This document shows, one piece after another, positions 1-3,525 of a stretch of DNA of 3,525 nucleotides. Below the pieces are notes generated by a model that was given only the letters and a program-made list of their open reading frames with translations, ran no database searches and had not been told where the DNA came from. The DNA lies in sequence record JQ966307.1. One strand, written 5' to 3'. The position numbers and the translations under genes are program-made. This DNA comes from Escherichia phage MS2. Within the stretch, counting starts at the first letter, position 1; each line of letters starts with the position of its first letter.

Positions 1-131
1 GGGTGGGACCCCTTTCGGGGTCCTGCTCAACTTCCTGTCGAGCTAATGCCATTTTTTTAATGTCTTTAGCGAGACGCTACCATGGCTATCGCTGTAGGTA
101 GCCGGAATTCCATTCCTAGGAGGTTTGACTC
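1..131 (+). other. 5' untranslated leader of an ssRNA phage genome, including the 5' terminal hairpin (about 5..23, GGGACCCC-UUUC-GGGGUCC) starting with GGG
   Basis: Seen in sequence: the window opens GGGTGGGACCCCTTTCGGGGTCC, an 8-bp G/C-rich stem around a UUUC loop. Established knowledge: this is the characteristic 5' end of MS2-group genomes, whose minus strand then ends in the CCCA-complement used by replicase. The leader runs up to the first gene start at 132. Confidence 0.85.
118..123 (+). promoter_or_regulatory. Shine-Dalgarno sequence (AGGAGG) of the maturation gene, 8 nt upstream of the AUG at 132
   Basis: Seen in sequence: AGGAGG at 118..123, then an 8-nt spacer and ATG at 132. Established knowledge: in MS2 this SD is sequestered by long-range pairing with an upstream complementary sequence in the leader. 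A CUUCCU stretch around 30..36 is a plausible partner, but that pairing is inference. Confidence 0.75.
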
Positions 132-1313
132 ATGCGAGCTTTTAGTGTCCTTGATCAGGAGTCCGAGACCTTCGTCCCTAGCGTCCGCGTTTATGCGGAC
201 GGGCAGGTCGAAGATAACTCGTTTTCCCTAAAATACCGCTCGAACTGGACTCCCGGTCGATTTAATTCGACCGGGTCTAGAACGGAACAGTGGCACTATC
301 CGTCCCCTTATTCTAGGGGTGCGCTCAGTGTCACATCGGTAGATCAAGGTGCCTACAAGCGCTCTGGGTCATCGTGGGGTCGCCCGTACGAGGAGAAAGC
401 CGGTTTTGGCTTCTCACTCGACGCACGTTCCTGCTATAGCCTCTTCCCTGTTAGTCAGAATCTGACTTACATCGAAGTGCCGCAGAACGTTGCGAACCGG
501 GCGTCGACCGAAGTCCTGCAGAAGGTCACTCAAGGAAATTTCAACCTTGGTGTGGCCCTAGCAGAGGCCAGGTCGACAGCCTCACAACTCGCGACGCAAA
601 CCATTGCGCTCGTGAAGGCGTACACTGCCGCTCGTCGCGGCAATTGGCGCCAGACGCTCCGCTATCTTGCCCTAAACGAAGATCGGAAGTTCCGATCGAA
701 ACACGTGGCAGGCAGGTGGTTGGAGTTGCAGTTCGGCTGGCTACCGCTCATGAGCGATATCCAGGGCGCATATGAGATGCTTACGAAGGTTCACCTTCAA
801 GAGTTTCTTCCTATGAGGGCCGTACGGCAAGTGGGCACTAACATTAAGTTAGATGGCCGTTTGTCGTATCCAGCTGCAAACTACCAGACTACGTGCAACA
901 TATCACGACGAATCGTGATATGGTTTTACATAAACGATGCACGTTTGGCCTGGTTGTCGTCTCTAGGTATCTTGAACCCACTAGGTATAGTGTGGGAAAA
1001 GGTGCCTTTCTCATTCGTTGTCGACTGGCTCCTTCCTGTTGGGAACATGCTCGAGGGCCTCACAGCCCCCGTAGGATGCTCCTACATGTCTGGAACAGTT
1101 ACTGACGTAATAACGGGTGAGTCCATCATAAGCGTCGACGCTCCCTATGGGTGGACGGTGGATAGACAGGGCACTGCTAAGGCCCAAGTCTCAGCCATGC
1201 ATCGAGGGGTGCAATCCGTATGGCCAACAACTGGCGTATACGTGAAGTCACCTTTCTCGATGGTCCATACCTTAGACGCGTTGGCATTAATCAGGCAACG
1301 GCTCTTAAGATAG
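132..1313 (+). CDS. mat: Maturation (A / assembly) protein, 393 aa; pilus-binding minor virion protein of ssRNA coliphages
   Basis: Seen in sequence: 393-codon ORF, ATG at 132, TAG at 1311..1313, preceded by a strong SD. The translation (MRAFSVLDQESETFVPSVRVYADG...HTLDALALIRQRLLR) matches the MS2 A protein as I recall it in length and along most of its length, with differences mainly near the N-terminus. First gene in the canonical levivirus order. Confidence 0.95.
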   Translation: MRAFSVLDQESETFVPSVRVYADGQVEDNSFSLKYRSNWTPGRFNSTGSRTEQWHYPSPYSRGALSVTSVDQGAYKRSGSSWGRPYEEKAGFGFSLDARSCYSLFPVSQNLTYIEVPQNVANRASTEVLQKVTQGNFNLGVALAEARSTASQLATQTIALVKAYTAARRGNWRQTLRYLALNEDRKFRSKHVAGRWLELQFGWLPLMSDIQGAYEMLTKVHLQEFLPMRAVRQVGTNIKLDGRLSYPAANYQTTCNISRRIVIWFYINDARLAWLSSLGILNPLGIVWEKVPFSFVVDWLLPVGNMLEGLTAPVGCSYMSGTVTDVITGESIISVDAPYGWTVDRQGTAKAQVSAMHRGVQSVWPTTGVYVKSPFSMVHTLDALALIRQRLLR

Positions 1314-1324
1314 AGCCCTCAACC

Positions 1325-1328
1325 GGAG
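1325..1328 (+). promoter_or_regulatory. Coat gene ribosome-binding site (GGAG) 8 nt upstream of the coat AUG
   Basis: Seen in sequence: GGAG at 1325..1328 and ATG at 1337 within AACCGGAGTTCGAAGCATGGCTTCT. Established knowledge: in MS2 the coat initiation region forms a hairpin that sets coat translation efficiency. Confidence 0.7.
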
Positions 1329-1336
1329 TTCGAAGC

Positions 1337-1729
1337 ATGGCTTCTAACTTTACTCAGTTCGTTCTCGTCGACAATGGCGGAACTGGCGACGTGACTGTCG
1401 CTCCAAGCAACTTCGCTAACGGGGTCGCTGAATGGATTAGCTCTAACTCACGTTCTCAGGCTTACAAAGTAACCTGTAGCGTTCGTCAGAGCTCTGCGCA
1501 GAACCGCAAGTACACCATTAAGGTTGAGGTACCAAAAGTGGCTACCCAAACCGTCGGTGGTGTACAGCTTCCTGTAGCCGCATGGCGTTCGTACTTGAAT
1601 ATGGAATTAACTATTCCTATTTTCGCAACGAACGACGATTGCGCGCTTATTGTTAAGGCGATGCAAGGTCTCCTAAAAGATGGAAACCCGATCCCCTCAG
1701 CAATCGCAGCAAACTCCGGAATCTACTAA
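1337..1729 (+). CDS. cp: Major coat (capsid) protein, 130 codons (129-aa mature protein after Met removal); also the translational repressor of the replicase gene
   Basis: Seen in sequence: ATG at 1337, TAA at 1727..1729 immediately followed by an in-frame TAG at 1730..1732 (tandem stops). The translation MASNFTQFVLVDNGGTGDVTVAPSNFANGVAEWISSNSRSQAYKVTCSVRQSSAQNRKYTIKV... matches MS2 coat as I recall it at all but about 3 positions. The supplied ORF (1220..1729) begins at an upstream in-frame ATG, but the genuine start is the internal ATG at 1337 with its own RBS. Confidence 0.97.
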   Translation: MASNFTQFVLVDNGGTGDVTVAPSNFANGVAEWISSNSRSQAYKVTCSVRQSSAQNRKYTIKVEVPKVATQTVGGVQLPVAAWRSYLNMELTIPIFATNDDCALIVKAMQGLLKDGNPIPSAIAANSGIY

Positions 1730-1907
1730 TAGATTCCGTCCATTCCAACATGAGGATTACCCATGTCGAAGACAACAAAGAAGTTCAACTCTTTATGTAT
1801 TGATCTTCCTCGCGATCTTTCTCTCGAAATTTACCAATCAATTGCTTCTGTCGCTACTGGAAGCGGTGATCCGCACAGTAGAGACTTTACAGCAATTGCT
1901 TACCTAA
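1680..1907 (+). CDS. L: Lysis protein L, 75 aa, single-gene lysis protein with a C-terminal transmembrane domain; +1 frame, overlapping the coat 3' end and the replicase 5' end
   Basis: Seen in sequence: ATG at 1680, TAA at 1905..1907, 75 codons, in a different frame from both coat and replicase. The translation METRSPQQSQQTPESTNRFRPFQHEDYPCRRQQRSSTLYVLIFLAIFLSKFTNQLLLSLLEAVIRTVETLQQLLT has a hydrophobic C-terminal half and an LS dipeptide in a Leu-rich stretch. Established knowledge: this matches the position, size and sequence of MS2 L, whose translation is coupled to coat termination. Confidence 0.9.
   Translation: METRSPQQSQQTPESTNRFRPFQHEDYPCRRQQRSSTLYVLIFLAIFLSKFTNQLLLSLLEAVIRTVETLQQLLT
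1748..1766 (+). promoter_or_regulatory. Coat-protein translational operator hairpin (TR) enclosing the replicase start codon; also the capsid packaging signal
   Basis: Seen in sequence: ACATGAGGATTACCCATGT at 1748..1766. It folds as a 5-bp lower stem (ACAUG/CAUGU), a bulged A at 1753, a 2-bp upper stem (GG/CC) and an AUUA loop at 1756..1759, with the replicase AUG at 1763..1765 in the 3' arm. Established knowledge: this is identical to the wild-type MS2 operator as I recall it. Confidence 0.93.
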
Positions 1908-3400
1908 GAGACGAATTGCTAACTAAGCATCCGTCCTTAGGAAATGGTAATGACGAGGCGACCCGCCGGGCTCTAGCTATCGCTAAGCTCCGGGAGGCGA
2001 ATGAGCGGTGCGGCCAGATTAATAGGGAAGGTTTCTTACACGATAAATCCTTATCGTGGGATCCGGATGTTTTACAAACCAGCATCCGTAGCCTTATTGG
2101 CAACCTTCTCTCTGGCTACCGCTCGTCGTTGTTTGGGCAATGCACGTTCTCCAACGGTGCCTCAATGGGGCACAAGTTGCAGGATGCAGCGCCTTACAAG
2201 AAGTTCGCTGAACAAGCAACCGTTACCCCCCGCGCTCTGAGAGCGGCACTACTGGTCCGAGACCAGTGTGTGCCGTGGATCAGACACGCGGTCCGCTACA
2301 ACGAGTCATATGAATTTAGGCTCGTCGTAGGGAACGGAGTGTTTACAGTTCCGAAGAATAATAAAATAGATCGGGCTGCCTGCAAGGAGCCTGATGCGAA
2401 CATGTACCTTCAGAAAGGAGTTGGCGATTTTATACGCCGTCGTCTCCGCTCTATCGGTATCGACCTGAATGATCAAACGATCAATCAGCGTCTTGCAAAA
2501 CTTGGCAGCATCGATGGTTCTTTAGCGACGATTGATTTATCGTCTGCTTCTGATTCCATATCGGACCGCCTCGTTTGGGAATTCCTCCCATCGCAAATGT
2601 ACGCGTACCTGTCGAAAATTCGTTCGTCACGAGGAATCGTTGACGGACGTGTAGTCGACTGGCACCTATTTTCCACAATGGGTAATGGTTTTACCTTTGA
2701 GCTAGAGTCCATGATATTTTGGGCAATAGTCAAGGCAACTATGATCCATTTTGGTAACCTTGGAACAATTGGCATCTATGGGGACGATATCATATGTCCC
2801 ACAGAGATTGCACCTCGTGTGCTAGAGGCTCTCAGCTTCTACGGTTTTAAACCGAATCAGTCGAAGACGTTCATCACGGGTCGCTTTCGCGAGTCCTGTG
2901 GTGCACATTACTTCGGCGGTGCTGATTGCAAACCGATTTATATCAAGAAACCCGTTAACAACCTCTTCGCCGTCTGTCTGTTACTCAACAGGCTACGCGG
3001 GTGGGGTGTTGTGAACGGAGTGTCAGATCCTCGCCTCTTCGAGACTTGGAAATGGCTATCCGAACGTGTTCCTTCGATACTTTTCGGTGGGTCTAACCTT
3101 GATGCAGACTACTACGTGGTTAGTCGTCAGGAAGCTAAAAAGCGTTACGAGAGTCACCCATCTTATGGGCGCACCCTCTCTCACTTTCATAGCACTCCTC
3201 ATCGGCTTTACCGCGTGCCCGTATCTAAACGTGAATTTTCTCCACGTGAAGAATCCGGTCGCCTCATCACTTGGTACCATAATGGTGGTCAAGTTATTGA
3301 CACCACTACGACCCCAAGGGTTCGCCTTGTGCGAACGTCGGAATGGCTAACAGTGGTGCCACTCTTCCCTCAGGAAGATGGCAACTGCGAGCTCTCCTAG
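1763..3400 (+). CDS. rep: RNA-dependent RNA polymerase (replicase beta subunit), 545 aa
   Basis: Seen in sequence: 545-codon ORF, ATG at 1763 inside the operator hairpin, TAG at 3398..3400. RdRp motif A (IDLSSASDSISD, about 2531..2566) and the catalytic motif C YGDD (2777..2788) are present, with STMGNGFTFELES between them (motif B-like). The N-terminus MSKTTKKFNSLCIDLPRDLSLEIYQSIASVATGSGDPHS matches the MS2 replicase as I recall it. The C-terminal roughly 100 aa look more diverged. Confidence 0.97.
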   Translation: MSKTTKKFNSLCIDLPRDLSLEIYQSIASVATGSGDPHSRDFTAIAYLRDELLTKHPSLGNGNDEATRRALAIAKLREANERCGQINREGFLHDKSLSWDPDVLQTSIRSLIGNLLSGYRSSLFGQCTFSNGASMGHKLQDAAPYKKFAEQATVTPRALRAALLVRDQCVPWIRHAVRYNESYEFRLVVGNGVFTVPKNNKIDRAACKEPDANMYLQKGVGDFIRRRLRSIGIDLNDQTINQRLAKLGSIDGSLATIDLSSASDSISDRLVWEFLPSQMYAYLSKIRSSRGIVDGRVVDWHLFSTMGNGFTFELESMIFWAIVKATMIHFGNLGTIGIYGDDIICPTEIAPRVLEALSFYGFKPNQSKTFITGRFRESCGAHYFGGADCKPIYIKKPVNNLFAVCLLLNRLRGWGVVNGVSDPRLFETWKWLSERVPSILFGGSNLDADYYVVSRQEAKKRYESHPSYGRTLSHFHSTPHRLYRVPVSKREFSPREESGRLITWYHNGGQVIDTTTTPRVRLVRTSEWLTVVPLFPQEDGNCELS

Positions 3401-3525
3401 TCAGCACGGCTAGGGACCCCCGTAATCGGGGTGGGTGCCGCGAAAGCGGCTATTCATCGTAACAACGATGGATAGGAGTAATCTCCTAATTTGGTGACTA
3501 ACTTTGCTTGGCTAGTCACCACCCA
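3401..3525 (+). other. 3' untranslated region (125 nt) with a series of stem-loops, ending in a 3' terminal hairpin and single-stranded CCCA
   Basis: Seen in sequence, successive hairpins: about 3417..3433 (CCCCG-UAAU-CGGGG core); 3437..3450 (GCCGC-GAAA-GCGGC, a GNRA tetraloop); 3455..3470 (CAUCGU-AACA-ACGAUG); 3473..3488 (UAGGAG-UAAU-CUCCUA); and the terminal hairpin 3493..3520 (GGUGACUA ... UAGUCACC, 8 bp) with a UGCUU-containing loop, followed by ACCCA. Established knowledge: MS2-group genomes end ...CACCACCCA with a terminal hairpin whose UGCUU loop forms a long-distance pseudoknot with the replicase coding region. Confidence 0.8.

Follow-up and report, generated by a model that had tools for sequence, protein, structure and literature searches.

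Does the aberrant C terminus of the replicase of phage strain DL52 reflect divergence in place from an MS2-like ancestor, or the presence of sequence from another lineage? We addressed this question using the record JQ966307.1 (Escherichia phage MS2, strain DL52), whose whole stretch of 3,525 nucleotides (nt) is referred to here as the window and provides all positions given below. Friedman, Snellgrove, and Genthner described DL52 (JQ966307, 3,525 nt) in 2012, along with DL54 (JQ966308), as "JS-like" genogroup I strains resembling MS2-type strains in three genes, with a replicase that diverges from amino acid (aa) 455 and a 3′ untranslated region (UTR) carrying ~53 nt of deletions (PMC3499819). 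In the same study, several programs called both strains recombinant, with DL16 as the "minor parent," a donor that was not identified, and breakpoint estimates that spread from aa 133 to aa 460. Our analysis agrees with this description in genome length, positions of the open reading frames (ORFs), divergence at aa 455, and the shortened 3′ UTR. The C-terminal divergence and recombination of DL52 are thus largely known already (PMC3499819); the additions made here are the donor lineage, the exact junction, a non-sister relationship between DL52 and DL54, and doubt over the natural origin of the junction.

Junction and donor lineage of the DL52 replicase

DL52 is very probably a mosaic, in which a DL16-like block (positions 1 to 2374) is joined to a JS-lineage block (positions 2383 to 3525) that ends in a weakly constrained replicase C terminus; none of our results contradicts either the mosaic structure or the rate heterogeneity. 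Over positions 1 to 2382, DL52 differs from DL16 (EF108464) at only four sites (52, 53, 1621, and 1811). With DL16 and a JS metagenome contig taken as parents, all 871 informative sites to the left of 2374 were DL16-like and none JS-like, and 289 of the 303 sites to the right of 2383 were JS-like. The maximum chi-square value was 1102 (956 to 1102 with DL16 and L009 to L011 as parents), which none of 500 permutations reached. Block identities, computed with penalized end gaps, of DL52 to contig L010 and to DL16 were, respectively, 65.4 and 99.9% over positions 128 to 2374, 96.3 and 76.5% over 2396 to 3124, 88.5 and 54.3% over 3125 to 3262, 97.8 and 65.5% over 3263 to 3400, and 99.1 and 53.0% over the part of the UTR covered by L010 (3401 to 3509). 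DL16 therefore stands at 99.9% up to 2374 and, from 2383, at 76, 54, and 53% for the core, hypervariable segment (aa 455 to 500), and UTR, respectively; the MS2-type strains as a whole range from 92 to 99.9% over 128 to 2374 and, from 2396, reach 75 to 76, 54 to 58, and 53% in these three regions. In sliding windows, DL52 and DL16 were 100% identical up to ~2350, beyond which identity fell to 60 to 87% against all MS2-type strains and fr alike, with the lowest values (36 to 55%) at 3100 to 3250 and in the UTR. DL52 thus combines two parental lineages and a statistically supported breakpoint. Only its 5′ two-thirds show the similarity expected of an MS2-type strain, and JS-type sequence does not extend genome-wide either, positions 1 to 2374 being DL16-type.

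These profiles relocate the discontinuity that the initial annotation of this sequence had set at about position 3100, since the sharp break is found at 2374 to 2383 and thus precedes the start then flagged by ~740 nt. The same annotation had the replicase N terminus and catalytic core tracking MS2 closely, which applies to aa 1 to 204 (95.6% identity) but not to the core from 2383 onward, where identity to MS2 drops to ~75% in nucleotides and 77% in amino acids, about the same as to fr (the core of the JS block is 75, 74, and 66% identical in nucleotides to MS2, fr, and GA, respectively). Its suggestion of a recombinant 3′ part gained a donor that matches 2383 to 3525 at 88 to 99% nt identity, although the junction had been misplaced and the block also holds motif A and the YGDD motif.

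The junction falls in a 48-nt zone (2348 to 2395), coding for VPKNNKIDRAACKEPD, that is near-identical across all Emesvirus lineages. No other block of the family is as conserved; consistently, the lowest column entropy in a 72-sequence family alignment was found at aa 196 to 210. In place of the published spread of estimates (PMC3499819), real parental lineages now fix the DL52 junction at nt 2374 to 2383 (aa 204 to 207); that of DL54 lies within window positions 2383 to 2396, depending on the JS contig taken as parent. Such a junction could have formed by homologous copy-choice, i.e., a polymerase template switch inside the conserved stretch, most likely performed by phage replicase in a cell coinfected by a DL16-like and a JS phage. 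The DL52 replicase thus joins the MS2-type N-terminal 204 to 206 residues to a JS-type palm, thumb, and C terminus, with the JS-type 3′ UTR inherited along. Core, C terminus, and 3′ UTR probably moved together simply as one contiguous 3′ block; coadaptation is also possible.

The donor emerged from a search of a large protein collection, which returned P0003 and its cluster mates P0121, P0122, and P0123. P0003, P0121, and P0122 match the DL52 replicase from about aa 205 to the C terminus, odd residues included, and are very different over the N-terminal 200 residues. Five JS contigs were compared: L009 (SRR7550489_5525), L010 (ERZ781410 NODE_606, 3,548 nt), L011 (ERR3201760_1143), L012 (ERZ1744908 NODE_4572), and L173 (ERZ781409 NODE_1890). 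L009 to L011 are 88 to 99% identical to DL52 in nucleotides from 2396 onward, through the short 3′ UTR as far as the contigs reach, and the replicase of L010 is 97.3% identical over aa 208 to the end, whereas the JS contigs match DL52 over 128 to 2374 at only ~65%. L173 stops ~45 nt beyond the junction and is JS-type on both sides. L009 to L011 and L173 encode their own maturation and coat proteins, and an MS2-type lysis ORF is present in L010, the sole contig examined for it. The JS maturation, coat, and replicase proteins (394, 129, and 544 aa) are 55, 74, and 65% identical to those of MS2, with 60% at the replicase N terminus; corresponding values for the three proteins are 78, 87, and 83.5% for fr and 39, 60, and 50% for GA. 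Against MS2 and fr together, the JS maturation, coat, and replicase proteins stand at 55, 74 to 80, and 65%, respectively. In these unrecombined genomes, maturation protein (55%) and replicase N terminus (60%) are nearly as diverged from MS2 as the C terminus (43%). The 3′ end, initially singled out as the most distinctive part of the genome, is so in DL52, but only because its 5′ two-thirds are DL16-type.

The JS coat and maturation proteins fall in clusters of 10 and 7 members, respectively, which derive without exception from ENA or Logan assemblies; a literature search for the sample accessions returned nothing. No NCBI accession occurs among the JS contig and cluster members, and no phage-collection record matches the 5′ part of the JS contigs. 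Exact-pattern scans of IMG/VR and JGI metagenomes for the JS-specific UTR hairpin gave no matches, and protein-guided scans of both found nothing closer than 69%. Judged by their sequences, the JS contigs form a stand-alone third Emesvirus lineage, which is probably a third Emesvirus species. This distinct status agrees with a proposal of 2004 that JS sequences cluster in between genogroups I and II (Vinje 2004, quoted in PMC3499819). The JS-type replicase fragment of DL52 likewise stands apart from both genogroups, its core and C terminus being 96 to 98% identical to JS contigs, which stood in the comparison for the published 189-bp references WWTP1_50 and 2GI13.

Natural junction versus laboratory chimera

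A mosaic sequence may be the genome of a mosaic phage or a product of its assembly, and in our assessment the case for a natural origin of the junction is about evenly balanced. The competing account, which we entertain tentatively but seriously, holds that DL52 and DL54 are truly pure JS phages whose amplicons were merged across the conserved stretch at 2348 to 2395. Walking primers derived from MS2 would have missed the JS 5′ two-thirds, and trace DL16-like RNA would have been amplified, or PCR templates switched. The odd C terminus would then be the normal C terminus of the JS lineage. The JS 5′ two-thirds are indeed only 35 to 80% identical to MS2 in 100-nt windows, so that MS2-based primers would not fit.

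Several observations weigh against a natural junction. DL52 and DL54 show no differences over 128 to 1911, yet 79 per 1,031 sites in the JS block, where DL52 is nearer three unrecombined JS genomes (44 to 54 differences) than DL54. Only one informative site unites DL52 with DL54, versus six, four, and three for other pairs, and four-point sums give no such grouping. Their JS blocks are thus not sisters. This excludes a single ancestral recombinant, and two or three separate recombination events would have to be assumed, of which two struck the same 48-nt zone and shared one 5′ partner. The DL16-type 5′ haplotype (at least 99% identity) was found only in DL16, DL54, and DL52, which come from one sequencing group; among 293 MS2-type records, the closest after these reaches 94.3% identity. 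Moreover, the genomes were assembled by primer walking on cloned reverse transcription-PCR products, the DL52 and DL54 replicases are each the sole member of their cluster in a set of ~15 billion proteins, and each of the five metagenomic JS contigs spanning the junction has JS-type sequence to its left and right and is thus unrecombined.

Further details fit a merger of amplicons. DL52 and DL54 do not differ from each other in the 5′ block, and both depart from DL16 at two positions, 1621 and 1811, where the DL16 record itself differs from most (1621) or all (1811) of the other group I strains compared. Both junctions lie in one conserved, primer-length zone, and part of the sequence data was supplied by another worker. 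DL54 is a three-part mosaic, with DL16-type sequence up to 1911, another MS2-type block from 1912 to ~2389 (~5% third-codon differences), and then JS; its extra block boundary near 1912 is as expected of an amplicon edge. As for independent sightings, the wastewater detections of "DL52" (Lee 2019) are assignments of contigs by best BLASTn match only, which pure JS phages would yield as well, and we rejected them as independent evidence for the chimeric genome. The junction was not reobserved outside the original study, given the single-member clusters, the five unrecombined contigs, and the lack of JS-like sequence in IMG/VR and JGI contigs. In a count of biallelic sites, the JS block of DL54 carried 38 private differences, compared with 9 to 18 in the other four sequences.

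On the other hand, the strains were plaque purified and three clones were sequenced per amplicon, which speaks for genuine recombinants. Given the two shared differences, the 5′ block of DL52 and DL54 is no exact copy of the DL16 record, and the best deposited match of the DL54 block 1912 to 2389 is 96%, so that a second, unsequenced contaminant would be required. A regionally dominant DL16-like clone could account for the 5′ identity, and the longest conserved stretch is precisely the expected site of homologous copy-choice. We advance with due reserve, as a possibility short of the likelier half, that DL52 and DL54 are laboratory chimeras and not recombinants, with the real JS phage being a stand-alone third Emesvirus genogroup or species.

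Rate heterogeneity in the replicase C terminus and the 3′ UTR

The two-block structure leaves the steepness of the C-terminal divergence to be accounted for. The replicase is 95.6, 77.3, 31.1, and 47.8% identical to MS2 over aa 1 to 204, 205 to 455, 456 to 500, and 501 to 545, respectively, and megablast alignments of DL52 to every MS2-like record end at window positions 3114 to 3125. The strong divergence of the last ~100 residues noted initially is therefore real (43.6% identity to MS2 over aa 446 to 545), as is the retention of the anchors DYYVVS, RTSEWLT, and FPQE. This C terminus recurs within the JS lineage, where aa 446 to 545 are 86% identical in DL54 and 91 to 93% identical in three metagenome contigs; the counterexample named initially, a known isolate sharing the C terminus, thus exists inside that lineage. 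The last 45 residues (aa 501 to 545) are 46% identical to GA and 95.7% to L010.

It is very improbable that the C terminus diverged in place from an MS2-like ancestor, with no recombination, by accelerated evolution or by adaptation to host factors or RNA. Such a scenario draws on the fast evolution of aa 455 to 500 in all lineages and on the residual in-frame homology to MS2. However, the change is abrupt at 2383 and not at 3100, the conserved core is synonymously saturated (proportion of synonymous differences [pS] of 0.60 versus MS2, against 0.19 for aa 1 to 204), the block shares 96 to 99% identity with genomes that are unrelated to DL16 in their 5′ parts, and the ratio of nonsynonymous to synonymous divergence (dN/dS) stays below 1. 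The split of informative sites (871:0 versus 14:289) refutes in-place divergence.

Within the JS-derived block of the mosaic, the excess divergence of aa 455 to 500 is a property of the segment. Nucleotide identity over 3125 to 3262 dips in every pair compared (MS2-fr, 59%; MS2-DL16, 80%; DL52-DL54, 79%; DL52-L010, 88.5%). In close pairs, dN over aa 456 to 500 is up 4- to 18-fold and dS ~2-fold, with dN/dS of 0.05 to 0.19 (NG86). The ratio of JS-MS2 to fr-MS2 nonsynonymous differences (pN) is ~1.5 in the core and the hypervariable segment alike. The near-random look of aa 455 to 500 against MS2 thus follows from a segment that evolves fast in every lineage, combined with the greater distance of JS. 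Across 72 related replicases, the gap fraction was 0.37 at aa 451 to 465 and 0.85 at aa 466 to 480, and the highest entropy outside the extreme N terminus was at aa 481 to 545; GA lacks 20 residues of the hypervariable segment. In an AlphaFold model of the DL52 replicase, the mean predicted local distance difference test (pLDDT) score was 90.5, with 56 to 58 at aa 461 to 480 and 84 to 94 at aa 481 to 540, where strands (480 to 488 and 514 to 524) and a helix (494 to 507) are predicted. Segment 455 to 500 is a weakly constrained insertion or loop found only in the MS2/fr/JS clade, partly deleted in GA and of low model confidence, and the last 45 residues appear from the model to fold and yet tolerate many substitutions.

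Relaxed constraint, one of the readings offered initially, thus holds for aa 455 to 500 and the C-terminal tail. The ~2-fold synonymous rise in aa 456 to 500 counts against it as a full account, not being explained by relaxed protein constraint alone. Adaptation of RNA or host-factor contacts, also proposed, found no support, as no excess of dN/dS was seen. Specifically, positive selection on the C terminus was not supported by the dN/dS of 0.05 to 0.19 over aa 456 to 500, nor by values near 1 in aa 501 to 545 that derive from only one to seven substitutions.

Two local explanations of the odd sequence fared worst. A frameshift, by which a 2-nt insertion at replicase nt 1374 plus compensating indels would put MS2-like sequence in another frame for ~45 codons, has next to no probability: a 2-nt insertion and numerous indels have been reported in this part of ORF4 (PMC3499819), but homology to MS2 over aa 456 to 497 is confined to the replicase frame (z = 7.0, versus 0.7 and 0.3 in the other two frames), and segment nt identity to MS2 (50%) compares with 46.7 ± 2.4% for shuffled sequence. 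No more credible is the idea that a gene overlapping in the +1 frame (ORF at 3066 to 3350, 94 aa, + strand) constrains or drives the sequence, since the ORF, although open in five JS-block sequences that are close relatives, is interrupted by stop codons in L012, MS2, and fr, as expected of a chance ORF, and the synonymous divergence of the replicase frame is up here, not down.

Two further features of the C-terminal region concern other genomes. L012 has a JS core (97 to 98% aa identity) and a C terminus that is more diverged from the DYYVVS anchor on (64 to 69% over aa 456 to 500 and 78% over aa 501 to 545; pS of 0.35 to 0.65 versus 0.17 in the core), a pattern compatible with a second natural boundary at window position ~3125 or with extreme rate heterogeneity. 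MS2 and fr, in turn, are more alike over 3263 to 3400 (88% nt identity; dS, 0.38) than in the core (80%; dS, 0.97). This likeness in the last 45 codons suggests either that the RNA itself is constrained near the 3′ end or that the two lineages exchanged sequence long ago.

The shorter 3′ UTR reported initially was likewise confirmed (125 nt in DL52, versus 171 in MS2; DL16, 171; fr, 176; GA, 119). It is a trait of the JS lineage, common to DL52 and L010 at 99% identity, and is marginally nearer GA (60% identity) than MS2 (53%). Minimum free energy (MFE) folds predict five hairpins in the DL52 UTR, of which the first (GGGACCCCCGTAATCGGGGTGGG) and the last (GGTGACTA...TAGTCACCACCCA, with ACCACCCA) also occur in MS2 and GA; internal hairpins are more numerous in MS2. 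The JS lineage resembles GA and not MS2 in UTR length and also in the length of the replicase tail and its ..LS ending. The sequence CCAAGCAA in the coat gene (1403 to 1410) is complementary to the loop of the 3′-terminal hairpin, UUGCUUGG (3497 to 3509); MS2, DL16, and the JS contig L010 likewise carry this complement at the corresponding site of the coat gene, and fr and GA have CAAGCAA(C) near 2200 to 2212 instead. Long-range pairing between the coat gene and the 3′ hairpin is at best a faint possibility, as a 7- to 8-mer match in a conserved coding motif could be chance.

Genome layout, relatives, and implications

DL52 has the layout of Emesvirus zinderi, with maturation, coat, overlapping lysis, and replicase genes in this order plus the operator hairpin (Table 1). 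Gene order, operator hairpin, PF03431, and a YGDD core are common to MS2 and fr (Emesvirus zinderi) and GA (Emesvirus japonicum), as are the C-terminal anchors DYYVVS (DTYLVS in GA), SEW, and FPQE. DL54 is 96.8% identical to DL52 overall. The 5′ UTR contains a run of seven T at window positions 53 to 59, compared with five in DL16 and MS2, a 2-nt insertion that shifts downstream coordinates by +2 relative to MS2.

Table 1. Coordinates of genes, blocks, and replicase segments in the DL52 window
Feature	Position	Strand	Basis or remarks
Maturation gene	132-1313	+	ORF list
Coat gene	1337-1729	+	ORF list
Lysis gene, overlapping	1680-1907	+	ORF list
Replicase gene, 545 aa	1763-3400	+	ORF list
MS2 operator hairpin, replicase start	1731-1766	+	Rfam RF02359, 59.6 bits
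DL16-like block (MS2-type, genogroup I)	1-2374	+	5′ UTR, maturation, coat, lysis, operator, replicase codons 1-204
Crossover zone, 48 nt, encodes VPKNNKIDRAACKEPD	2348-2395	+	Alignment, maximum chi-square breakpoints, family column entropy
JS-lineage block	2383-3525	+	Replicase codons 207-545 and entire 3′ UTR; identity to metagenome contigs
YGDD, aa 339-342	2777-2788	+	Within JS block
Hypervariable replicase segment, aa 455-500, RQEAKKRYESHPSYGRTLSHFHSTPHRLYRVPVSKREFSPREESGR	3125-3262	+	Core of the region flagged initially
Structured C-terminal segment, aa 501-545, and stop codon	3263-3400	+	Anchors SGR..W.H.GG, RTSEWL, FPQE; tail ends ..CELS
3′ UTR, JS type, 125 nt	3401-3525	+	Sequences and MFE folds

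The DL52 replicase is an exact match to AFN39796.1, and a match to Pfam PF03431.19 (RNA_replicase_B) is listed for it and all its relatives. With PF03431, YGDD, and a Qβ-like polymerase fold, it has the hallmarks of a Fiersviridae replicase β subunit. The model has the same fold as the Qβ replicase β subunit (PDB 3MMP, 3AGP, and 4R71; Foldseek template modeling [TM] score, 0.77 to 0.79; 28 to 29% identity), which aligns in a PDB sequence search only over aa 41 to 430, the last 115 residues of DL52 being too diverged.

In the literature, DL52 and DL54 count as the first natural recombinants of single-stranded RNA phages (Leviviridae), and water-quality work uses them as reference genomes when F-specific RNA phages are typed. 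For users of these references, the divergent C terminus is only one portion of a 1.14-kb JS block, complete genomes of the donor lineage with capsid genes of their own are available, and the DL52 and DL54 records cannot share one recombinant ancestor. Typing by best hit will score pure JS contigs as "DL52." The JS lineage probably deserves the status of an Emesvirus species of its own, and the claim of natural recombination in DL52 and DL54 deserves a retest. In the replicase, aa 458 to 480 are marked as a dispensable-looking, clade-specific loop. If DL52 is real, a JS-type palm, thumb, and 3′ UTR are functionally compatible with 206 N-terminal residues of MS2 type. If the junctions are natural, at least two or three independent crossovers in one 48-nt stretch would make it a recombination hotspot, at which a module of virion genes plus replicase N terminus would be joined to a module of polymerase core plus 3′ UTR.

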